From assembly GCA_965200715.1 (NCBI GenBank), contig OZ241374.1, forward strand, positions 1,365,718-1,429,717: DNA of 64,000 nt, given 5' to 3'. Source of the stretch: Arenicellales bacterium (GTDB lineage Bacteria > Pseudomonadota > Gammaproteobacteria > Arenicellales > Poriferihabitantaceae). The notes below the pieces were generated by a model. The model had not been told where the DNA came from, did not search any database, and saw only the letters and a list, made by a program, of their open reading frames with translations. A program made the translations under genes and the position numbers. This document shows positions 3,009-62,845 of the stretch, in pieces (position 1 is the first letter of the stretch; the number at the start of each line of letters is the position of its first letter).

Positions 3009-4022
3009 CTACTTATGCATCATTCGTGAACGAAATAACAACAAAAACACAAATATAGAGCCTATTGATGTAGTTACAATTCCAACAGGTAATTCTTGAG
3101 GTGCGAGGAGAAGTCTGCTCAACATGTCAGAAACTGTAAGTAATAAAGCCCCGACGATGGCGGCTGTGGGCAGAAGAAGACTGTGCAATGGGCCTGTGAT
3201 TCCCCGAGCAAGGTGTGGGACCATCAAGCCCACAAAGCCAATCACTCCCGCAACCGATACAAACACAGCGGTAGCTAATGCGGCTACAAAAAACATGCTG
3301 AAACGAAGATATTGCAAAGGTACGCCAAGAGTTGATGCAGTAAGATCACCTGCCAAAAGTGCATCCATCCACCTTCTTCGATAAAATGAATAGGCCAAGA
3401 TTAATATCAATCCAGAACTAACGAGTGGAAAACTCTCCCATCTTGCTAAACCGAGACCTCCTAACATCCAGAAAATTACAGAATGAGCTGCACGACTATC
3501 ACCAGAGAAAATCAGATAATTTGTTATCGCAGCGAAGAGAAAGGACACTGCCAATCCGGCAAGAATTAGTTTTTCTGGTGCACTAGTTTGCAATCCATGT
3601 ACTAATGCTAGCACAATTCCTGAGGCAACAAGACCACCACAAAAGGCCGCAAGTGGGAGTGTCCAAATACCTAAAATATCACCTGTGACCGTAATCACAA
3701 AGACAGCACCTGCCGCCGCGCCCGAAGATAACCCAAATAAAAATGGGTCAGCCAAATCGTTACGTGTGGTCGTTTGCAAGACAACACCAACGATTCCAAG
3801 TCCAGCACCGATCACGGTTGCAAAAAGCGCACGCGGAAGACGCAAATCAAACACAATTCGGTGGACAGGAGAGATATCTCCTTCAATAAGTCCAATGTTC
3901 AGGGCAATCGCCTTGACAACTTCGGTAAGTGGTATCGGCGTTGTACCATAGAGTACCGAAGCCAACAAAAGGGTGATCAGAATGACCGCCCCGAGAATGT
4001 TGGCGATAAGTATACGGGTCAA
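3009..4022 (-). CDS. FecCD/BtuC-family ABC permease (metal-chelate type)
   Basis: 337 aa polytopic protein. Blocks LRLPRALFATVIGAGLGIVGVVLQTTTRNDLADPFLFGLSSGAA and GVIGFVGLMVPHLAR are typical of FecCD permeases. The stop/start is packed against the upstream SBP gene (4022/4024). Confidence 0.9.
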   Translation of the reverse strand: MTRILIANILGAVILITLLLASVLYGTTPIPLTEVVKAIALNIGLIEGDISPVHRIVFDLRLPRALFATVIGAGLGIVGVVLQTTTRNDLADPFLFGLSSGAAAGAVFVITVTGDILGIWTLPLAAFCGGLVASGIVLALVHGLQTSAPEKLILAGLAVSFLFAAITNYLIFSGDSRAAHSVIFWMLGGLGLARWESFPLVSSGLILILAYSFYRRRWMDALLAGDLTASTLGVPLQYLRFSMFFVAALATAVFVSVAGVIGFVGLMVPHLARGITGPLHSLLLPTAAIVGALLLTVSDMLSRLLLAPQELPVGIVTTSIGSIFVFLLLFRSRMMHK

Positions 4023-36940: not shown

Positions 36941-38301
36941 TCATCTCGGCGGATCTGCAAGAGGATTCGTAATCAGTTTCTGTTCTATCTCATTTTCTGC
37001 ATACTGTGAGGTTGCCATCCAAGCACCATACAATCGAGCCTCCCCTTGGGGCTCCCCTGGGAGGGGGGGGGGGGGCCCCTTGCGGTAAAAAATATTCCGG
37101 ATTGACAGGGTTATCCTTCCAATTCCCGCTAAATGTACCAGCAAGCACTTTCGGTTGACCGTTTTGATGCTTTGCCCCAGATGGTACCCCGCCCCACTTA
37201 CCACTGGATTCTACGACATAATAAGGGTGTCCAGTATTCCAATAACGGGCATCTATTTCTCCGGTAAAACTCCCATCATTTTGAATTTTGGCATCTTGGA
37301 GTAAGATATAGTGTCCAGTTTGATTTACAGCAAATTCGGTCTGAAGTTCTTCGGGAACCCTTTCTCGGTTGGTAATCGTTTTCAAACCAATTCCTCTAGT
37401 ACACCCAATACAGCCAGAAATACTATTTTCATCAAAATCCGCTTGCAGGGTTATGTCAGCGGAAAAATCACCTGCTTCCACAAATGATCCGGGAAATAGC
37501 GGATGTTTTGGAGCATCTACGTCGTAGGTTAAAATTCCTCCAGCTATTCCACGATAGGTTGCCTTACCAGATGCTTGAATGGGACCCGCATCCTTCAATT
37601 CAGTACCGATGGAAAAAGTCCCAACATTCGCTTGATCAAGATTGTTCTTATCTGCGTGGAGCCAATAACCAAATATTAGATATTCTCTTGGAAAATTAGG
37701 ATCAGTCACATTAAAATCATCCCCTATAGGGTGAGAAATATCAGGATGACGATCATCAATGAACCAACTCGTAAAAATTTGTCCTATAGTTATATCATTG
37801 TCCTTTACAGCAAATAGATCCTCGCGTTTTGTGGCAGTCCAAAACCTTAAAGGTGAATATAATTGGGCGCCTTCCTGGCGGTGACGACGAGAGTTAAGCA
37901 AGATTTGAGTATTGTCCTTATCTTGTAAGTCAATCGTAATGCGTGAATCAATCGAATTGTTGACTTTTGCCGACACTTTAATGTTATTGGAATTGGCATT
38001 TGACTGTACTACAACACCATTACTAGCATCTCTAGAAAAAAGTGGTTCACTGCTTATACTATTTTTGAATGCCTTGAAAAGTTCTGATCGATTCCCCTTT
38101 TTGATCAGAAGATCAGTTGTGTTCTGATAGTTTGTGGTTTCAATGGAGGATTCAATGGACGACCCACCACATCCAGTAAGTATTAGAAATCCTATCAGCA
38201 GGAACGAGCGTACGATAAACCTACTTCTCGCAGCGATATTACTTACAAATGCATATCGAATGTGGTTGTGAGGGGGGGGGGGATAATGCTATTAATTTCA
38301 T
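36941..38301 (-). CDS. Putative surface lipoprotein with TbpB/fHbp-like beta-barrel features, interrupted at two homopolymeric C tracts (candidate phase-variable gene; out of frame as assembled)
   Basis: ATG at 38301 then the C11 tract. The downstream frame encodes ARSRFIVRSFLLIGFLILTG-C-GGSS (lipobox) and is continuous with track ORF 36990..37976. The C13 tract then shifts away from the 36941..37204 frame, which ends ...GEARLYGAWMATSQ... Body motifs: GKATYRGIAGG and DFSADITLQADFDENSISG. Confidence 0.55.
37063..37075. repeat. G13 (C13 in coding sense) homopolymer near the 3' end of the lipoprotein gene
   Basis: Counted directly: gag[g x13]cccct. Confidence 0.95.
38272..38282. repeat. G11 (C11 in coding sense) homopolymer 19 nt after the putative ATG of the lipoprotein gene
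   Basis: Counted directly: gtga[g x11]ataatgc. Confidence 0.95.
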
Positions 38302-38507: not shown

Positions 38508-40808
38508 TTAGATTCTGTTACCAATATCGTCTGGAATATCCTCAGGGATATCGTCAACAGAGACAATCACACCAACGTGGGAGTCCGATTGTTTTAATTT
38601 TTGTCGGGTATTTCTGCTTCTGTTTGATTGAGGTTTACGGTTTGTATTCTGTTTTGTAGAAGATTTTGCTTCAGAGGGTTTTGATGTTTGATTGGTATTT
38701 CCCTGTGTCGAACCTTCCTGATTCGTCTTTTTTGTATCCGCAGGTAATTTTTTTGAGCGTTGGTTTTTTGCTTGTGTAGCTTCTTTTTGTGAGTTGATCT
38801 TTTGTTCTTGTTTGACTCTGCCTTGTGCGCTTTGGCTTTTCACCTTTTCTTGCGAGACTGTGTTCGGTCGGGTGCTTGAACCATCTCGCCTGGTGCTGCC
38901 TGTTTGTTTGCTATTTGGTGGCTTACTACCTGTTTGTTTCTGTGTTTTTTTGCTAGATTTTAGTTTTTGTCCGCTAGAAGCCGGTTTACGTCTTTGTTGA
39001 TCGGTCTGTTTGCGTGTTCCTTTTCCTTGCCTCTTACCTTTCGTAACTGTCTTTCCTTCGTTCCTAGGTGTTCTATTTTGTTCTGTTTCACTCGATTTAA
39101 ATGAAGAGACCAATCCTGAGATAAGTTTGATTAAGCCGGATTTCTGCGATTCTTTAACTTGATTCTTGGGTTTAGGAGACGAGATTAAATCCATGTGTTC
39201 GGAACCAATCACTGCTCTTTCAGAGTCCTTATGTTCCAACATCCGTTTGACTTTACTATTGCTAATCCTTGAATCATGGGGAATTTCAAAACTCATCATC
39301 TCCTTATCTGTATTGGTTCCCTTATAGTCAATGGCCTTTACGCTAATCTCGCAGTCAACGATATTATCTTCCGGAATGATCACGATCCTGCATCCGAATT
39401 TAATCCGAAGTCGATCAAGTTCGGGATTCATTTCATTGACCAGATAAATTGCGGTATCGGTTGGTACCCTACACTGTACCTCTGCAACCATGGGCTTGTA
39501 AGCACTCTCTTCGATTTTTCGCAACACTTGAATTGTAGAAGCCTCCACTGTTGGAATGAGTCCAGTGCCATGACATTTATCGCAAAGATGATGATTCGTA
39601 TCAACAAGCGAGGTGCGTAAACGTTGTCGAGACATTTCAAGTAGGCCAAATTCGGATATCTCGCCGACCAAGGTTTTTGCTCGATCAACGCGTAATTTAT
39701 TCTTCAGTTCTTTAACGACCATATTCCGATTGGATTTGTCACTCATGTCGATCAAATCAGCAACAATTAATCCACCATGATCTCTTAGTCTCAACTGGTT
39801 AGCAAGCATTTCAACTGCTTCGAGGTTAGTTTGCAATGCGGTTTCTTCCATATAAGTGCCTTTCGTCGCTTTACCCGAATTGACGTCAACGGACAACAGC
39901 GCTTCGGTAGAGTCAAAAATCAAATAACCGCCAGAGGGCAAATCGATTTTGCGGCTAAAAACATCATTTACCTGATCCTGAATCTTATATTTTATAAACA
40001 GCGGTACTTTGCCTCGGTGTAGCTTTAGTTTGACTTCTTTGTCCGGCATAACCTGCTTGATATATCGCTCTGTACGTTCATAAATCTCTTCATCATCAAC
40101 AATCAGTTCCTCAACATCTTTACCCAAATGATCACGAAGTGTTTGGGTAATCAGGTCATCCTGCTTATAAATTAGAAAAGGTCCCTTGGTACTGTTTGCT
40201 GCTTGTTCAATTAGATCCCACAATCGAGTCAAAAAGTCCAAATCCCACTGCAATTCTTGAATGGTCTTTCCGGCACTTTCGGTTCGGGCAATCAGAGCAT
40301 GTTTCGGGTCCAAATCAAGTTGTTTTAGGTTTTCCCTGATATCAGCACGCCTTGCAGCTTCGATAGTTCTGGATATTCCACCGCTTTTCTGGTTATTCGG
40401 TTTCAACACGAAATAGTTTCCAGGTAAAGAAATAATGGTAGTTAGAGTTGCTCCTTTCTGAATTGAACCTTCCCCCCGTTCATCTTTATCGACCTGTACA
40501 ATTACTTCCATACCCTCCTGTAAACTTGGTATTGGTTTTGCATTGCCCGAATTCTGCTCATCCTTAGAAGAATTGTAAAACTCCTCGGAAATTTGCTTGA
40601 ATGGCAAAAATCCCTGTTTGCCCCGGGAGTAACTAACAAAACAAGCTTCAAGACTATGCTCGATTTTGGTAATGACTCCCTTGTAGATATTACCTACTTT
40701 GGTTATAGCCTCAGAAGGTCCAATATAGAGGTTAAACAGAGTCTTTCCATTGATTATTGCTACTCTGAGTTCTTCAGCATAGGTGCCGTTTATGAGTATT
40801 CTTTTCAT
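38508..40808 (-). CDS. rne: Ribonuclease E
   Basis: 766 aa. MKRILINGTYAEELRVAIING, S1 domain, zinc-link CDKCHGTG. Long K/Q/S/T-rich low-complexity C-terminal scaffold. Confidence 0.92.
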   Translation of the reverse strand: MKRILINGTYAEELRVAIINGKTLFNLYIGPSEAITKVGNIYKGVITKIEHSLEACFVSYSRGKQGFLPFKQISEEFYNSSKDEQNSGNAKPIPSLQEGMEVIVQVDKDERGEGSIQKGATLTTIISLPGNYFVLKPNNQKSGGISRTIEAARRADIRENLKQLDLDPKHALIARTESAGKTIQELQWDLDFLTRLWDLIEQAANSTKGPFLIYKQDDLITQTLRDHLGKDVEELIVDDEEIYERTERYIKQVMPDKEVKLKLHRGKVPLFIKYKIQDQVNDVFSRKIDLPSGGYLIFDSTEALLSVDVNSGKATKGTYMEETALQTNLEAVEMLANQLRLRDHGGLIVADLIDMSDKSNRNMVVKELKNKLRVDRAKTLVGEISEFGLLEMSRQRLRTSLVDTNHHLCDKCHGTGLIPTVEASTIQVLRKIEESAYKPMVAEVQCRVPTDTAIYLVNEMNPELDRLRIKFGCRIVIIPEDNIVDCEISVKAIDYKGTNTDKEMMSFEIPHDSRISNSKVKRMLEHKDSERAVIGSEHMDLISSPKPKNQVKESQKSGLIKLISGLVSSFKSSETEQNRTPRNEGKTVTKGKRQGKGTRKQTDQQRRKPASSGQKLKSSKKTQKQTGSKPPNSKQTGSTRRDGSSTRPNTVSQEKVKSQSAQGRVKQEQKINSQKEATQAKNQRSKKLPADTKKTNQEGSTQGNTNQTSKPSEAKSSTKQNTNRKPQSNRSRNTRQKLKQSDSHVGVIVSVDDIPEDIPDDIGNRI

Positions 40809-41533: not shown

Positions 41534-41610
41534 AGGCGCGTAGCTCAGTTGGTTAGAGCACCACCTTGACATGGTGGGGGTCGGTGGTTCGAATCCACTC
41601 GTGCCTACCA
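41534..41610 (+). tRNA. tRNA-Val (anticodon GAC)
   Basis: Hand-folded cloverleaf: acceptor AGGCGCG/CGTGCCT, D-arm GCTC..GAGC, anticodon stem CCACC/GGTGG with loop TTGACAT, T-loop TTCGAAT, encoded CCA. Confidence 0.9.
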
Positions 41611-41758
41611 TTTCACAGAAACGAAAATAGATATTCTACAGTACGTAGAATTACTAAAAATGGCTTCAAAGCCAAATCGAATATATTCTCTTACAGACTT
41701 TAATCATATATCAAGCGCTCTCCCGTATGGGGCGCCACTGTACTAAGGACTCAAAACA

Positions 41759-55515: not shown

Positions 55516-57701
55516 CCGAAGTTTAACATGTAGTGTTCCAACCTATTGATAATTTGCAATTAAAAAAATCGAGTGGCACTACAAGTGCATTCATCCACCG
55601 ATTTTCGGTGGATGAATGGAGGTTGAGTCTGACTTAGACGACGGTTTTTTGCAGTCTACGAGGTGGGGTTTTCAATCCCATTGCCTGGTAGAACGTGGAC
55701 TGGATGGCATCCGGCATGGCGGTTTTTCGCAAATGTAGGGTGCGGCCATCCCGTCGCTGGAAGGTGGTTGTGGTTCTGCAGATGGTGCTGAGAGTTTCAC
55801 GAATCATGCCCCAGCTGTCATGATGGCCCTGCGCCTTCATGCGGGTGCGTAACACACATACCGCCTGATACGCCAGTACCGCGATCAATAGATGGGAACA
55901 ACAGCGCTCAGTGGTCTGGTGATACACCGGTCGCATGCCCAGTTCGGATTTCAGAGCACGAAACACCGACTCCACTTCGGTCAGGGTATGATCGATCCTC
56001 CAGAGTGTCTCCCCATCCCAGTTGAGGATGTTACTGCGCAAGGCATAGACGCCAGGATGGGTCATCATGGTGCCGGATTTTGGGTCAAACTGCCAGTCGA
56101 CCCGACTCACCCGGGTATCGTCATCGGTAGTGATCAGATTCAGCTGATAATGCCGGGCGACTCGGGAATGAGATTTGTGCAGACGACCAAGACGTTGCTG
56201 AATCACGGCGATGGTATTGCGGGCTTTGGGCTTACCCAGTGATTGATTGAGTTGCGTGAGCTGTTCTTCATAGTTCTTTTGATGATGCCTCAGCAGTGAC
56301 TGTTCCTTGTCGGCTCGCGCCTCCGAGTAGCAACGCACATAGGATTCCTGCCAAGTCTCCCCGTTTTCCTGATGCTCCACCAACTCCTGGTAATACTGTA
56401 CTTCCCGGTTTGCACGATTGGTCAAGGTTTCAAGCTGGGCATGTTCGAAATCGAATTCCCGCGTCTGCTCACGAGACACCACCACATATTGATAGCCCTG
56501 CTCACGCAGCCAAGCCAGGTTGGAAGCCGAGGCAATGCCGCGGTCCATGACCACAACGGCTCCCGGTTTCCCACCAAGCTGACCCATCATCGTCTCAAGA
56601 GTCTGAACTTCGGCAACATTACCGGCAAACATGCGGGATTTCATCACAAATCCACTGGCATCCACCACCAGTCCAAGGGTCAGCAACCGGCAGTCACTGC
56701 GCTTTTCTTTCGAACGCCCAAACTGGGCTTCGGGAATCTGCTCCGCCGAACCTTCAAAATAAGTATTGGTTAAGTCATAGAATGCCAGGGTTGGTTGCAG
56801 CTGAAACAGCGAGCAAGCCCGCTCAAATACCTGCTCTTCGATGCCCTGCTGATGATCCAGCAGCTTATCCGAGACCCGATGCAACGTCATCTCGCTCAAG
56901 GCACCAAAGTCCTGACCGAGCAACTCCCCAGTGGCACTGATATTGCTCAGCCAGTGATGCGTTTGCCGGTCGGATGCCGGAGCAATCATGCGGGCGATGA
57001 TCAAACCCAGGGCAACCCGCTGCTGACGAGGGTTGAACCCCAATTCCAACAGCCGCTCGGGCAGGCCCAGTTCCTGCACCGCCTGAAGTGCCGCATATTC
57101 ACCTCCAATGCTCCGCACATCATGATCCTGGACCGAATTGAGGTCTACGGTTTGCCAGTCCGGTCCCGACTCGACCGAGACGCGTTCCGGGACCGCCTGC
57201 CCCTGACGCTGGTTGAGAAGATTGGCAATGCGGTGCGCTTCCGCTTCGAGTGTTGGGTCGATCTCTCCATATCCAATGGGCACCTGACCGCTACGCAACT
57301 CTTCAATGCGCTGGCAGAGTAGCGGCCAGTACTCCCGCTCAATTGAAAAATACCGGCCCAGATTCAATAAGGTAAGCTGTCGGACTTGTGCGCCATTTCG
57401 AACGCTCTCGACGAGTCGGAAACTGTAGTGGACCGTTCCATCCGAGCTGGTTCCGGTCTTAGCTTGACGAATGTACATGATCGATTGGAGCTATTCAATA
57501 TTTCGGAACGGTCAATCGTAGCAGTGGGTTACAAGCGCTGTCAATACCCATACCTTATTACATGTCACTACATTTTCTAGAAGGCCTCGAAATCCGTAAA
57601 AAAGGGGCTAAAAAGGCCATAAAAGGACATATTTATGGACCAGAGATAGACCAAATAGGATTTTGACCTAGATCAGATAACGCAAAAATGTTAAAGATCG
57701 G
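55516..57701 (-). mobile_element. IS1634-group (IS4 superfamily)-like insertion sequence, 2186 bp
   Basis: Imperfect terminal IRs CCGAAGTTTAACATGT / rc CCGATCTTTAACATTT (13 of 16). One 614-aa transposase. A sampled line has ~58% G+C versus ~45% or less in the flanks. A perfect 14-bp-stem hairpin (55588-55618) lies just after the transposase stop. Confidence 0.85.
55634..57478 (-). CDS. IS1634-family DDE transposase
   Basis: 614 aa. Family-typical opening MYIRQAKTGTSSDGTVHYSFRLVESVR, then FYDLTNTYFEG...GRSKEKRSDCRLLTLGLVVDASGF...FAGNVAEVQTL. Confidence 0.88.
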   Translation of the reverse strand: MYIRQAKTGTSSDGTVHYSFRLVESVRNGAQVRQLTLLNLGRYFSIEREYWPLLCQRIEELRSGQVPIGYGEIDPTLEAEAHRIANLLNQRQGQAVPERVSVESGPDWQTVDLNSVQDHDVRSIGGEYAALQAVQELGLPERLLELGFNPRQQRVALGLIIARMIAPASDRQTHHWLSNISATGELLGQDFGALSEMTLHRVSDKLLDHQQGIEEQVFERACSLFQLQPTLAFYDLTNTYFEGSAEQIPEAQFGRSKEKRSDCRLLTLGLVVDASGFVMKSRMFAGNVAEVQTLETMMGQLGGKPGAVVVMDRGIASASNLAWLREQGYQYVVVSREQTREFDFEHAQLETLTNRANREVQYYQELVEHQENGETWQESYVRCYSEARADKEQSLLRHHQKNYEEQLTQLNQSLGKPKARNTIAVIQQRLGRLHKSHSRVARHYQLNLITTDDDTRVSRVDWQFDPKSGTMMTHPGVYALRSNILNWDGETLWRIDHTLTEVESVFRALKSELGMRPVYHQTTERCCSHLLIAVLAYQAVCVLRTRMKAQGHHDSWGMIRETLSTICRTTTTFQRRDGRTLHLRKTAMPDAIQSTFYQAMGLKTPPRRLQKTVV

Positions 57702-59855: not shown

Positions 59856-60301
59856 TTGCATACGTTAACAACATTGCAGGCGATGAAAGAGCAAGGCGAG
59901 AAGATTGTCTGTGTTACCGCCTATGACTATTCGAGTGCACATGCTGCCAACGAGGCTGGAGTTGAATTGATTCTGGTGGGTGATTCTCTGGGGATGGTAA
60001 TTCAGGGTCATGATAGTTCCTTGCCGGTTACGATTGGTGATATGGCCTATCACATGCGATGTGTCAAATCGGGCAATCGTCAATCCTTGTTGTTGGCGGA
60101 TTTGCCGTTCATGAGTTACTACAGTGAATCGAAGAGTTTGGAGAATGCGGCGATTTTGATGCGTGAAGGTGCGCAGGCGGTCAAGTTGGAAGGGGGTGCA
60201 TGGTTAGCCGAATCGACCCGTTTGTTAGCGGAACGTGGGATTCCGGTTTGTGCGCACATGGGCCTAACTCCGCAGTCTGTCAATCATCTTGGTGGGTATC
60301 G
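59856..60301 (+). pseudogene. panB: panB (ketopantoate hydroxymethyltransferase) 5' fragment, interrupted by IS
   Basis: TTG start. [40 protein letters not shown]...[16 protein letters not shown] matches E. coli PanB up to GGYK|VQGR. Confidence 0.88.
60292..60301. repeat. Direct repeat GTGGGTATCG (left TSD; identity extends to 14 bp from 60288)
   Basis: Read directly. The same 10-mer is at 62484-62493. Confidence 0.8.
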
Positions 60302-60394
60302 CAGGGCAATTTTATGTTTAGCCTCAAATATTCAATTATAAATAAATAACACAAAAAGCTGGACTTTTGCATTTCAGTTTGTTATGCTCTCGGC

Positions 60395-61495
60395 ATGAAC
60401 AGTCCAGTTAAGCCCTCGAAATCCGATCCACGGGTGCTCAATTTGCGCCTGGTGCGGTATGATGAAATGGCGCAATACGATGATTTCATGGATCAATCCC
60501 ATCGTCGTGGTGCTTTGAGACGTATCGGTCACGAACTGCACTATGTGGTTGAAGATCAGGGGCAGTGGATTGCACTGATCAGTTTTTCTCCGGCCGCGCT
60601 GAAGTGTTCGGCCCGAGATCAGTGGATTGGCTTGATCTCGCAAATCCAGAACGACCGGTTGCGGTTTATCGTGAACAATTCGCGCTTCCTGATTTTGCCC
60701 GGTCATGCTGCTCCGAATCTGGGCTCGCGGATTCTGTCGGCCTGCCGCAAGCGGCTAGCGAGTGACTGGATGAGGCATTTTTCCCAACCGTTGTTATTGC
60801 TTGAGACCTTTGTTGATACGGATTTCCACACGGGCACGATTTATCGTGCCGATAACTGGGTGTTGGCGGGAAAGACCCGAGGCTACCGGCGGGTGCATGG
60901 TGGCTATAGTCCGACTCCGACCGAGTCGGTCAAGTTGGTATTTGTGAAACCCCTGCATGCGGATGCCCAGGCGATCTTGCGAGCCCAGCCGCTTCCGGAT
61001 GTGGATCAATATCGAGTGAAGAAGATGAATTTGGCAATTGAAGACTATGGTTCCCTGTACGACTATTTCCAGGGCATGAAGGATGTTCGCAGTCGCCAGG
61101 GCAGACGGCATGAACTGGCCAGCGTATTGTCCCTGATCGCTGCGGCGATGTTCAGTGGTGCGATCGGGTATAAGGGCATCTGGATCTGGTGCGATGAGTT
61201 ATCGCAGGCCAATCGTCGGCATTTCCACTGTCGAAGATGGAGAGGCAAGCGAATCACCCCTTCCATCACCTGTATTCGCAATACCATGATCCAGGTGAAT
61301 CCCGACCGCTTGCAACAGCTGGTCAACCGGTTCAGCATCCAGCATTTCGGTTTGCCTTTTGAGCCGCTTGCGATTGATGGCAAGGTGCTGTGTGGTTCGA
61401 AAGGCGAGCACCATCGTCAGACCCAGGTTATGAATGTGGTGGGGCATGATAGTGGGTTTTGCTATGCGAAAAAAAGTAGGGACGTTGCCGGTTGA
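60395..61495 (+). CDS. Transposase part 1: DUF4338-like N-terminal domain fused to the ISAs1 N-terminal (DDE_Tnp_1-associated) region; ends by frameshift at the A7 run
   Basis: LRFIVNNSRFLILPG, LLLETFVDTDFHTGTIYRADNWVLAGKTRGYRR (DUF4338-like, from memory). Then FQGMKDVRSRQGRRHELASVLSLIAAAMFSGAIGYKGI and LAIDGKVL (ISAs1). Confidence 0.7.
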   Translation: MNSPVKPSKSDPRVLNLRLVRYDEMAQYDDFMDQSHRRGALRRIGHELHYVVEDQGQWIALISFSPAALKCSARDQWIGLISQIQNDRLRFIVNNSRFLILPGHAAPNLGSRILSACRKRLASDWMRHFSQPLLLLETFVDTDFHTGTIYRADNWVLAGKTRGYRRVHGGYSPTPTESVKLVFVKPLHADAQAILRAQPLPDVDQYRVKKMNLAIEDYGSLYDYFQGMKDVRSRQGRRHELASVLSLIAAAMFSGAIGYKGIWIWCDELSQANRRHFHCRRWRGKRITPSITCIRNTMIQVNPDRLQQLVNRFSIQHFGLPFEPLAIDGKVLCGSKGEHHRQTQVMNVVGHDSGFCYAKKSRDVAG

Positions 61496-62258
61496 GGGAT
61501 CAGACGAGGAGAAGCAGTCGAACGAGATCAAGTTTTTCGCCCCGACTCTTGAGCAGATGGATATTGCCGGAAGGACGATCACGGCGGACGCGATGAATAC
61601 CCAGATTGAATCGGCCAATTATGTGATCGAACGAGGGGCGGATTTTCATTTTTCGGTCAAGGGCAACCAGCCCGGTCTGCTGGAGGATATCCAGGTCTGG
61701 TATGAGCAGCAAGGTCAGTTTCAGGAGCCGGATTTCGAAGAGCCGTTGGAAAAGGATCATGGACGCATCACCCAACGCAAGATCTGGGTAACCGATCGGT
61801 TGAATGAATATGTTGAATTCCCACATGTACAACAGGTATTTGTGATTGAGCGCAACGTCCAAGACCCCAAGGGAAAAAATCCAGATCGTGTCGAGATCGT
61901 ATATGGGATTACCTCGCGAAGCAAAGAGGAGTCGAACGCAGAAGAAATTCTCAGCACCAACCGAGGCCATTGGGCAGTAGAAATCGCCCATCATGTATTG
62001 GACAATCCGCAGGCCTTCAATGAAGATGGCAGTCGCATCCGTTGCGGGCATGGTCCGGAAAACATGGCCTGCATGCGACGCCTTGCCCTGACCCTGCTAC
62101 GCTATTATCAGCAGCGCAATCGTCAGCCGATCACGGAACAGATCGAACGACTGAAGTACAATCCACGACGCGTGCTCGACTATCTCAAGCTGACCGGCAA
62201 CACCCGGCCTAGAAGGCGATCACCAACCGAGTGTTGGCCGCTATCGCTGGCTACCTAA
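61434..62258 (+). CDS. Transposase part 2: ISAs1-family DDE catalytic region (+1 frame relative to part 1)
   Basis: KQSNEIKFFAPTLEQMDIAGRTITADAMNTQ, FSVKGNQPGLLEDI, DHGRITQRKIWV, YGITSRS, RGHWAVEIAHHVLDNPQAFNEDGSRIRCGHGPENMA. Confidence 0.8.
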   Translation: MWWGMIVGFAMRKKVGTLPVEGSDEEKQSNEIKFFAPTLEQMDIAGRTITADAMNTQIESANYVIERGADFHFSVKGNQPGLLEDIQVWYEQQGQFQEPDFEEPLEKDHGRITQRKIWVTDRLNEYVEFPHVQQVFVIERNVQDPKGKNPDRVEIVYGITSRSKEESNAEEILSTNRGHWAVEIAHHVLDNPQAFNEDGSRIRCGHGPENMACMRRLALTLLRYYQQRNRQPITEQIERLKYNPRRVLDYLKLTGNTRPRRRSPTECWPLSLAT

Positions 62259-62483
62259 GACAACCGACTGATATCTGCTGATTTTCGGTGGTGCCCGATG
62301 GGCACCAGGCATGCGCTCGTGCCGGTGTTGCCCACAGCACCGAAATCCTGGCGAAAGGATGCTCAATTCCAACGGATTAGCCGAATATCCGTCTAACCAA
62401 CGCCCCCTGACCACATACAAATGGAAAAACAACCTCTGAAACCGAGCAAAAACGAGCGAATAAAAAAGAATAAATTTGCCTTG

Positions 62484-62493
62484 GTGGGTATCG
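62484..62493. repeat. Direct repeat GTGGGTATCG (right TSD)
   Basis: See left copy. Confidence 0.8.
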
Positions 62494-62845
62494 AGTGCAG
62501 GGTCGGGACCCGGCCAAGCGTCAGAGTATTCTGGATGAAGCGCGGGTACTGGAGGATGCCGGTGCATCGCTGATTCTGATCGAATGTGTTCCGGAATCGC
62601 TGGGTCAGGAGCTAACCAAGGCCCTGACCGTGCCGGTGATTGGGATTGGGATTGGGGCGGGTGCCTCGACCGATGGACAGATTCTGGTATGGCATGATCT
62701 GCTTGGCTTGTATCCGGGTAAGCCGGCACGGTTTGTGAAGGATTTTCTGCGGGGCAATTCGGGAGGAGTTCAAGGTGCATTGGCAGAGTATGTTCGACAG
62801 GTGAAGAGTGGAGAATTTCCAGACTCGGAACACAGTTATGTTTGA
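62494..62845 (+). pseudogene. panB: panB 3' fragment
   Basis: (R)VQGRDPAKRQSILDEARVLEDAGASLILIECVPESLGQELTKALTVPVIGIGIGAGASTDGQILVWHDLLG...GEFPDSEHSY matches the PanB C-terminal half. 446 + 352 nt = 266 codons. Confidence 0.88.

Follow-up and report, generated by a model that had tools for sequence, protein, structure and literature searches.

The stretch of DNA analyzed here, referred to below as the window, spans 64,000 nucleotides (positions 1,365,718 to 1,429,717 of contig OZ241374.1, assembly GCA_965200715.1) of an Arenicellales bacterium belonging to Gammaproteobacteria. Near its end, the window carries an insertion sequence (IS) of the ISAs1 family, which comes from a large clade and landed in the gene panB with a 10-bp target duplication. 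The transposase of this element bears an N-terminal domain of the DUF4338 family (named DruA in Pfam), and its coding sequence is split into two open reading frames (ORFs) at a run of seven adenines (A7). We regard the element as a member of a DUF4338-ISAs1 clade that depends on recoding, the slippery run of this particular copy being one base too short, and we give this reading a probability of roughly 0.75. The features at the locus are listed below in the order of their positions.

59856..62845, + strand: host gene panB, interrupted (5′ part 59856-60301, 3′ part 62484-62845)
60292..60301: target-site duplication GTGGGTATCG, left copy, panB sequence, 10-bp direct repeat
60302..62483, + strand: whole insertion sequence, 2182 bp; the alignment with L081, a copy on an unrelated metagenome contig, covers exactly 60302 to 62483
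60302..60315, + strand: left terminal inverted repeat CAGGGCAATTTTAT, 12 of 14 bases agreeing with the right end
60395..61495, + strand: ORF1 (OrfA), 366 amino acids, ending ...CYAKKSRDVAG and a stop
60440..60982, + strand: Mom-like GNAT domain (DUF4338/Pfam DruA), residues 16-196, from Pfam, AlphaFold2, Foldseek and PHROGs
61061..61333, + strand: DDE_Tnp_1_assoc domain, residues 223-313, Pfam E-value 4.5e-13, helical in the model
61376..61378, + strand: first catalytic Asp, D328 (LAIDGK), in ORF1, 5′ of the slip site, invariant alignment column
61469..61476, + strand: predicted recoding site, A7 (61469-61475) then G, where ORF1 reads GCG AAA AAA AGT AGG
61476..62258, + strand: transposase portion encoded by ORF2, running from VGTLPVEG... 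to its stop codon, +1 relative to ORF1
61587-61589, + strand: second catalytic Asp, D398 (TADA), in ORF2, invariant in the alignment
61980-61982, + strand: catalytic Glu, E529 (HWAVE), in ORF2, invariant in the alignment
62470..62483, - strand: right terminal inverted repeat CAAGGCAAATTTAT (reverse complement), an imperfect pair with the left end
62484..62493: target-site duplication GTGGGTATCG, right copy, direct repeat

A reading of the window made from its letters (the sequence-only reading) had placed an oversized ISAs1-like element of 2182 bp at 60302-62483, and these bounds are exact: L081 is 96% identical to the window element and its ends coincide with them. The element is present as a single copy within the window and is richer in guanine and cytosine (51.9%) than the window (43.1%). 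The two ends start with CAGGG and CAAGG, respectively. The length of the target duplication, 10 bp, was set by the element boundary obtained from L081, and a duplication of 14 bp (CTTGGTGGGTATCG) was ruled out, as CTTG proved to be part of the right inverted repeat in the same alignment. Deleting the element together with one copy of the repeat restores PanB as an uninterrupted protein of 265 amino acids (TIGR00222, 318.8 bits). This gene belongs to the biosynthesis of pantothenate (vitamin B5) and is single-copy in most bacteria; the host bearing the interrupted version would either need external pantothenate or have another route, or else the insertion is a minority variant in the assembly. 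From the transposase stop to the right inverted repeat, about 225 bp (62259-62483) are non-coding, a tail longer than that of the 1.92-kb clade members. Scanning the element for promoters and terminators gave no signal beyond the shuffled expectation.

In the product of ORF1, the GNAT domain is followed by the helical DDE_Tnp_1_assoc domain and then by strands one to three of the DDE domain, while the reading frame of ORF2 is open from 61434 to 62258. Both frames, and the total of about 620 amino acids deduced for them in the sequence-only reading, are present at 60395..61495 and 61434..62258, as are the A7 run at 61469-61475 and the continuous frame obtained with A6. When one A is deleted from A7, a continuous ORF of 620 amino acids results (...CYAKKVGTLPVEG...), and the junction peptide of the joined protein is predicted to be ...CYAKK(K)VGTLPVEGSDEEK. 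A Pfam search of the A6-corrected protein had been proposed at that stage and returned all three families named there: DUF4338/DruA (PF14236) at residues 25-168 with an E-value of 8.8e-20 and 71.5 bits (cut-off 27), which bears out the call of an N-terminal DUF4338 domain, as well as DDE_Tnp_1_assoc and, at residues 371-567, DDE_Tnp_1. The ISAs1 blocks noticed in the C-terminal part correspond to the latter two families and to a match over the full length of the NCBIfam model for ISAs1 transposases (NF033564; residues 244-568, model positions 1-314 of 314, 165.5 bits against a cut-off of 70). Thus, the element is oversized for ISAs1 because its transposase bears the N-terminal domain of the DUF4338/DruA family.

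The AlphaFold2 model of the joined protein, with a mean predicted local distance difference test score (pLDDT) of 84.4, consists of a GNAT-type alpha/beta domain (residues 16-196), a helical domain (221-318) equivalent to DDE_Tnp_1_assoc and presumed to bind the element ends, and an RNase-H-like domain, of which the best PDB matches were Tn5 transposase structures (1muh, E-value 9e-10). The two lysines of the slip site, K359 and K360, belong to strand three of the catalytic domain in this model, and D328 is therefore encoded in ORF1. No PDB sequence was matched at an E-value of 1 or lower by the profile of the whole-protein alignment; both Tn5 transposase and the phage protein Mom (see below) were found by fold comparison only.

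Relatives of the transposase were searched for in a collection of 5.8 billion proteins, yielding 2672 matches. Most of the top matches were proteins of 350-366 amino acids with DruA and DDE_Tnp_1_assoc only, and nearly all of these ORF1-only homologues end at one site, having ...CYTQKK, ...CYTQKKSxxCR or ...CYAKKK immediately before the stop. For a census of the nucleotide sequences, we took 80 related loci from the GTDB species-representative genomes, out of at least 516 confirmed, and placed the junctions from the tblastn matches on either side; 76 junctions were parsable. A_AAA_AAG is in phase in ORF1 at 67 of the 76 (as CAA AAA AAG or GCN AAA AAA AAG) and A_AAA_AAC at three more. All 70 loci with a heptamer have ORF2 in -1 and a zero-frame stop 0-7 codons downstream. 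The census covers Gamma-, Beta- and Alphaproteobacteria, Desulfobacterota and Acidobacteriota, and includes isolates such as Acidithiobacillus ferruginosus CF3, Desulfosarcina variabilis and Thiohalocapsa halophila.

In the rest of the clade ORF1s, CAA and CAG are used at about 50:50, and so are AAA and AAG, implying that the fixed CAA AAA AAG reflects a constraint at the nucleotide level. Furthermore, the copies found within individual genomes are 99.7-100% identical to one another, measure 1.92-2.2 kb and lie at different sites, each with its own duplication of 8-10 bp, which shows that elements with the -1 layout are actively transposing. The multi-copy genomes gave CA(G/C)GG(T/C)nAATTTGTTCT as the end consensus of the clade. 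Altogether, as judged from the comparison of sequences, the frame split is a conserved state of the clade and a predicted -1 recoding site rather than an accident of the window copy. Ordinary translation would produce OrfA, made up of the Mom-like GNAT domain, the helical end-binding domain and three DDE strands with the first Asp, and a slip on the A-run inside the catalytic domain would produce the full transposase, OrfAB, which gains the second Asp and the Glu. By analogy, OrfA would be abundant and the transposase rare, so that transposition would be kept low.

The site in the window departs from this layout by one base. In the nearest relative, L081, the corresponding sequence is GCG AAA AAA AAG TAG, namely A8 with the canonical heptamer in phase and then a stop, and ORF2 is in -1; thus, the window copy is one A short of the layout of its lineage, which puts its ORF2 in +1. 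The sequence-only reading was right to place the split at the A-run and to consider slippage, inactivation and mis-assembly, but it took A6 for the reference state, and the state of the lineage is A8 with ORF2 in -1. The same one-A-short layout (GCA AAA AAA AGT AGG) occurs in a sister element of 2185 bp (the P0013 type), copies of which in four assemblies are 100% identical, with three or more different sequences at their left flank, and L087 is a further example of the +1 layout. The runs in the subclade of the window element comprise A6 fused (P0005), +1, -1 and A9 fused (P0002), and the presence of all phases suggests either some contribution of transcriptional slippage or merely a mutable run. 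The window copy may obtain its transposase through a +1 slip in which tRNA-Lys moves forward by one base and re-pairs without mismatch on AAA_AAA_A or, alternatively, through RNA polymerase dropping one A; otherwise it would rely on the transposase of a sibling copy. That the run is real and that the copy still makes some transposase has, in our judgment, slightly less than an even chance.

Several observations weigh against the recoding as we read it. The frameshift product of the clade, the ribosomal slipping at A_AAA_AAG and the efficiency of that slipping are predictions, and the window copy has the only +1 layout among the 77 junctions surveyed in the census. In per-sequence minimum-free-energy folds of 56 junctions, no common structure was found 3′ of the slip site, and the covariation of two hairpins (GGCA...TGCC and TGCCC-GTAGA-GGGCA) was not above that of shuffled controls in a 51-sequence alignment. 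Fused single-ORF proteins in the main clade have exactly one extra A, CAA AAA AAA GTN (L002, L090-L094), and such in-frame (A8) variants in genomes indicate that the run length is mutable; these forms could be constitutive-fusion mutants. One fused variant was found in three JGI metagenomes, including on a contig of 13.5 kb. Lastly, the G that follows the A-run also opens a conserved Val codon of ORF2 and hence is no independent evidence for ribosomal over transcriptional slippage.

RNA polymerase slips efficiently on runs of about nine bases. It is rather unlikely, in our view, that the clade is recoded in this manner, by RNA polymerase adding or dropping an A instead of by the ribosome, with an identical protein as the outcome. 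The main-clade run, at A7, falls short of the length just mentioned, and the direction is -1 in 70 of the 76 loci with a heptamer phase that fits tandem tRNA slippage. On the other hand, run lengths of A6-A9 and every one of the three phases are found in the subclade of the window element, the +1-type copies are unable to use a -1 ribosomal slip, and the in-frame variants are off by exactly one extra A; moreover, Antonov et al. (PMC3711429) argue that a mixed direction favors realignment. A ribosomal -1 slip and the addition of one A by RNA polymerase both give ...QKKVG..., and the sequence alone cannot separate the two. For the window copy itself, two further explanations have to be weighed against the one that we prefer. 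The copy may be dead, the loss of one nucleotide from A8 to A7, at about the time of insertion or later, having uncoupled ORF2 and left a fixed remnant in panB that makes no transposase, which would agree with its being the sole +1 layout among the 77 junctions, with the A8 kept by L081 and with the lack of a recognized stimulator of +1 slipping at this site. We hold this to be unlikely, as the copy has, apart from the run, kept its ORFs, inverted repeats and target duplication unbroken, which points to a recent insertion, and as the sister element of the +1 type is identical, multi-copy and located at different sites. Thus, the +1 layout is no bar to spread, although a transposase supplied in trans could explain the spread. 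The other explanation takes A7 for a homopolymer error of sequencing or assembly, the true run being A8 and the element an ordinary -1 frameshift element. Under-calls of homopolymers are common in long-read assemblies, and the expected A8 is only one base away, but this explanation appears improbable: the window has 107 homopolymers of at least 6 bases, and only at this one does a 1-nt change convincingly join two halves of one gene, the long ORFs of the window are intact throughout, and the one-A-short layout recurs in the four assemblies of the sister element, at least one of which was made by a short-read assembler (k141 contig names).

A second candidate recoding site was noticed in a sister clade of DUF4338-ISAs1 elements, of which the ORF1 products are of 430-470 amino acids and end just past a conserved motif, '...FSPS' (at least 10 cluster representatives). 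At two loci of this clade (L095 1470-1500 and L096 ~3245-3275), whose proteins are about 35% identical, the junction reads T TTT TCC CCC TCA and the remaining DDE part is in +1. The candidate site, T_TTT_TCC_CCC (+1), lies about 80 codons 3′ of the KK site.

The N-terminal domain modelled alone with AlphaFold2 adopts a GNAT fold (pLDDT 89). Its top match among PDB structures in Foldseek was Mom of phage Mu (8bv8_B, E-value 3.8e-8, TM-score 0.63), ahead of ordinary acetyltransferases, and in the viral library (BFVD) the leading matches were phage Mom-like proteins together with GNAT-nuclease fusions. At the level of sequence profiles, PHROGs phrog_1384, 'Mom-like DNA modification protein', was matched with an E-value of 1e-6, and 48 of 65 relatives matched Pfam Mom at an E-value below 0.01. 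The sequence-only reading had left DUF4338 without a function; this holds insofar as the chemistry is deduced only, but the fold is that of GNAT proteins and nearest to Mom. DUF4338 has already been termed a GNAT domain, in passing, in a paper of the Aravind group (PMC10853773), and in the literature we found nothing linking DruA to Mom. Mom moves glycine from Gly-tRNA(Gly) onto adenine N6 in double-stranded DNA; the residues essential for this are R111 and S124, with contributions from H58, Y59, D149, R151 and Y159 (PMC13219725). With the Mom sequence taken from the phage Mu genome record, the motifs map onto the window protein as follows.

Mom ELNRMWL, R111: window NNSRFLI, R97
Mom NSESRAIS, S124: window NLGSRILS, S111
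Mom SFADER, D149: window TFVDTD, D141
Mom GVVYQASNF, Y159: window GTIYRADNW, Y150
Mom KHY, H58: window (H)H, H36

In the motif alignment, R97, S111, D141, Y150 and H36 are invariant or at least 90% conserved in the family, and H36, R74, D75, R88, N108, D124 and E137 are invariant or nearly so among relatives that share 36-70% identity. The fold and these conserved residues are consistent with an active Mom-type transferase, either acyl- or aminoacyl-, that acts on nucleic acid, and we put this forward as a tentative assignment with less than even odds. The following points speak against it: the window domain scores 19 bits with Pfam Mom, under the cut-off of 27.1, the profile-profile comparison with Mom (hhalign) is weak (E-value 0.0087, 12% identity), and the subclade of the window element does not conserve the equivalents of Mom Y59 and R151. 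Non-catalytic N-terminal domains are common among transposases, and the GNAT-like domain might likewise be non-enzymatic, serving the transposase as a module for multimerization or for binding DNA or the target. The loss of the Tyr and the Arg just mentioned would fit such a module, as would motif A, which has PNLGS without the canonical glycines of Q/RxxGxG/A, whereas the near-invariance across relatives of the polar residues at the Mom catalytic positions, and of many others, speaks against it; this alternative likewise merits serious but somewhat doubtful consideration.

The N-terminal domain is found far beyond ISAs1. A sensitive search with residues 1-200 gave at least 5001 cluster representatives at an E-value of 1e-3 or lower, and 2327 at 1e-10 or lower. 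To survey the neighbors, 80 metagenome loci (L097-L174 among them) were fetched with a relative. In the surveyed loci, an ORF of about 300 amino acids for DUF4338 lies directly 5′ of a transposase gene on the same strand, usually overlapping it. The partner belongs to the IS66 family in 38 loci and to UPF0236 in 6 loci; the other partners sampled were IS66 again, a DDE_Tnp_1 protein of 432 amino acids, a Tn5-like transposase (Tnp_DNA_bind and Dimer_Tnp_Tn5) and the ISAs1 type. Two sampled loci have single-ORF fusions, one with a DDE_5 transposase (L112, 740 amino acids) and the other with a Tn5-like transposase (L127, 729 amino acids); apparent fusions of 820-834 amino acids in L128 and L139 were discarded as artefacts of stop codons within the tblastn matches. 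The frame relation between the paired ORFs is mixed, and the pairs may use separate initiation and not frameshifting. As DUF4338 stands beside several transposase families, we regard it mainly as a transposon-associated module and not as a marker of Druantia.

The name of the Pfam family nevertheless raises the question of whether ORF1 is DruA of the Druantia type I anti-phage system. The Pfam model PF14236 matches, and some database entries (P0071) are named 'Druantia anti-phage system protein DruA'. However, NCBIfam returns ISAs1 only, no model of Druantia or of any other defence system in PADLOC-DB matches the window protein at an E-value of 0.1 or lower, and the C-terminal part is an ISAs1 transposase. 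The neighbors of the element in the window are a peroxiredoxin gene and an IS1634 transposase gene, and none of the Druantia partners (DruB, DruC, DruD and the helicase DruE) lies beside it. The gene lies in an IS that is bounded by inverted repeats and has duplicated its target site in panB, and this context refutes the Druantia reading, to which we assign practically no credence. The label 'DruA-type' given in the sequence-only reading is hence correct as a Pfam family name and not as an assignment to the defence system, given the lack of a PADLOC match and of Druantia neighbors and the prevalence of the domain beside transposases. The naming of OrfA as 'Druantia anti-phage system protein DruA' (P0071 and similar entries) is likely a systematic misannotation through the Pfam name. 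Druantia type II contains a methyltransferase, DruM. A broader and decidedly speculative scenario would have DUF4338 as a Mom-type nucleic-acid-modifying transferase captured repeatedly by at least five unrelated DDE families (ISAs1, IS66, Tn5-like/IS4-type, DDE_5 and UPF0236), in which OrfA marks DNA chemically (that of the element, the target or the host) to control transposition or to evade restriction, and DruA of Druantia type I would then be an exapted transposon enzyme that provides a DNA mark, a role like that of DruM.

Some other features of the window were recorded. An unrelated IS1634-family transposase of 614 amino acids (NF033559, 284.6 bits) is encoded at 55634-57478 on the - strand, about 3 kb 5′ of the element. 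Runs of G13 (37063-37075) and G11 (38272-38282) lie just downstream of an RNase E gene (38508-40808, - strand) that matches positions 1-736 only of the 1068 of its model, and the ORF at 36990-37976, after this gene, has no family match; the two runs may represent sequencing artefacts or phase-variable tracts, or they may break the frame in the C-terminal half of rne. An Rfam match to HPnc0260, a Helicobacter antisense RNA (41572-41715, - strand, 67.5 bits), overlaps a tRNA gene on the opposite strand (41534-41607) and is probably a tRNA-related false positive.

Proteins of this kind carry the NCBI labels 'ISAs1 family transposase' or 'DUF4338 domain-containing protein', implying that the architecture is already in the databases, and a plasmid collection gave three weak matches, all annotated 'ISAs1 family transposase'. 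In the literature, with ISfinder and TnPedia outside the search, we found no description of the DUF4338-ISAs1 architecture or of recoding in ISAs1, and DUF4338/PF14236 is mentioned in five papers, none of which ties it to insertion sequences. The recoding group thus appears to be undescribed. If the predicted recoding operates, the DUF4338-ISAs1 clade joins the short list of IS groups with a transposase controlled by a conserved recoding site, and the location of its site inside the catalytic domain is unusual. Gene callers report these transposases as two separate proteins, a 'DUF4338 protein' and a 'DDE transposase', and knowledge of the heptamer allows correct annotation. Since DUF4338 travels mostly with transposons, in the company of at least five transposase families, labels such as 'Druantia protein DruA' are misleading. 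The Mom-like active site offers a testable lead for the domain that gives a defence-system protein its name, and raises the puzzle of what a GNAT enzyme would do for a transposon. The wider interest lies in the recoding of the clade, the Mom-like active site and the recurrent capture of the domain more than in this possibly crippled copy.

ISAs1 elements are about 1.2-1.5 kb long with one uninterrupted transposase ORF, inverted repeats of about 14-22 bp starting with CAGGG and target duplications of 8-10 bp; to our knowledge, they have been described without a frameshift. The window element resembles them (ISAs1 itself and the H-repeat/YhhI-type of E. coli) in the NF033564 core with DDE_Tnp_1_assoc, DDE_Tnp_1 and an intact D,D,E triad, in its CAGGG end and in its duplication of 10 bp, those of the clade being 8-10 bp. 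It differs in being about 0.7 kb longer (2182 bp; 1.92-2.2 kb in the clade) and in the extra N-terminal GNAT domain of 200 amino acids, and the clade differs in having the transposase split at a conserved recoding site within the catalytic domain (70 of 76 loci). With Mom of phage Mu, the N-terminal domain shares the motifs N-x-R-[FM]-[LW]-[IL], N-x-x-S-R-[AI]-[IL]-S, F-[VA]-D and G-x-[IV]-Y-x-A-x-N-[WF], but it is part of a transposase, whereas Mom is a stand-alone late protein of the phage. With DruA of Druantia type I, the window domain shares the Pfam family (PF14236, formerly DUF4338), of which it matches profile positions 53-224 of 297; it differs in that it lacks the first ~50 and the last ~70 positions of the profile and sits in a mobile element.

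As for the site itself, A_AAA_AAG in IS3/IS911 and A_AAA_AAC in IS1 are the slippery heptamers of classical -1 frameshifting in bacteria. A motif analysis of bacterial frameshift heptamers is available (PMC4066793). The clade examined here has the same heptamers in phase, ORF2 in -1, a short product of the upstream frame and a fusion that is the predicted transposase, as in IS3 and IS1. Unlike in IS3 and IS1, no downstream structure is supported (two hairpins were tested), the transposase belongs to an unrelated family, and the window copy itself has ORF2 in +1 and hence lacks the in-phase -1 heptamer. Furthermore, the slip in IS1 and IS3 falls at the border of the DNA-binding and the catalytic part, whereas the slip site of the DUF4338-ISAs1 clade lies after the first catalytic Asp, within the RNase-H-like domain.

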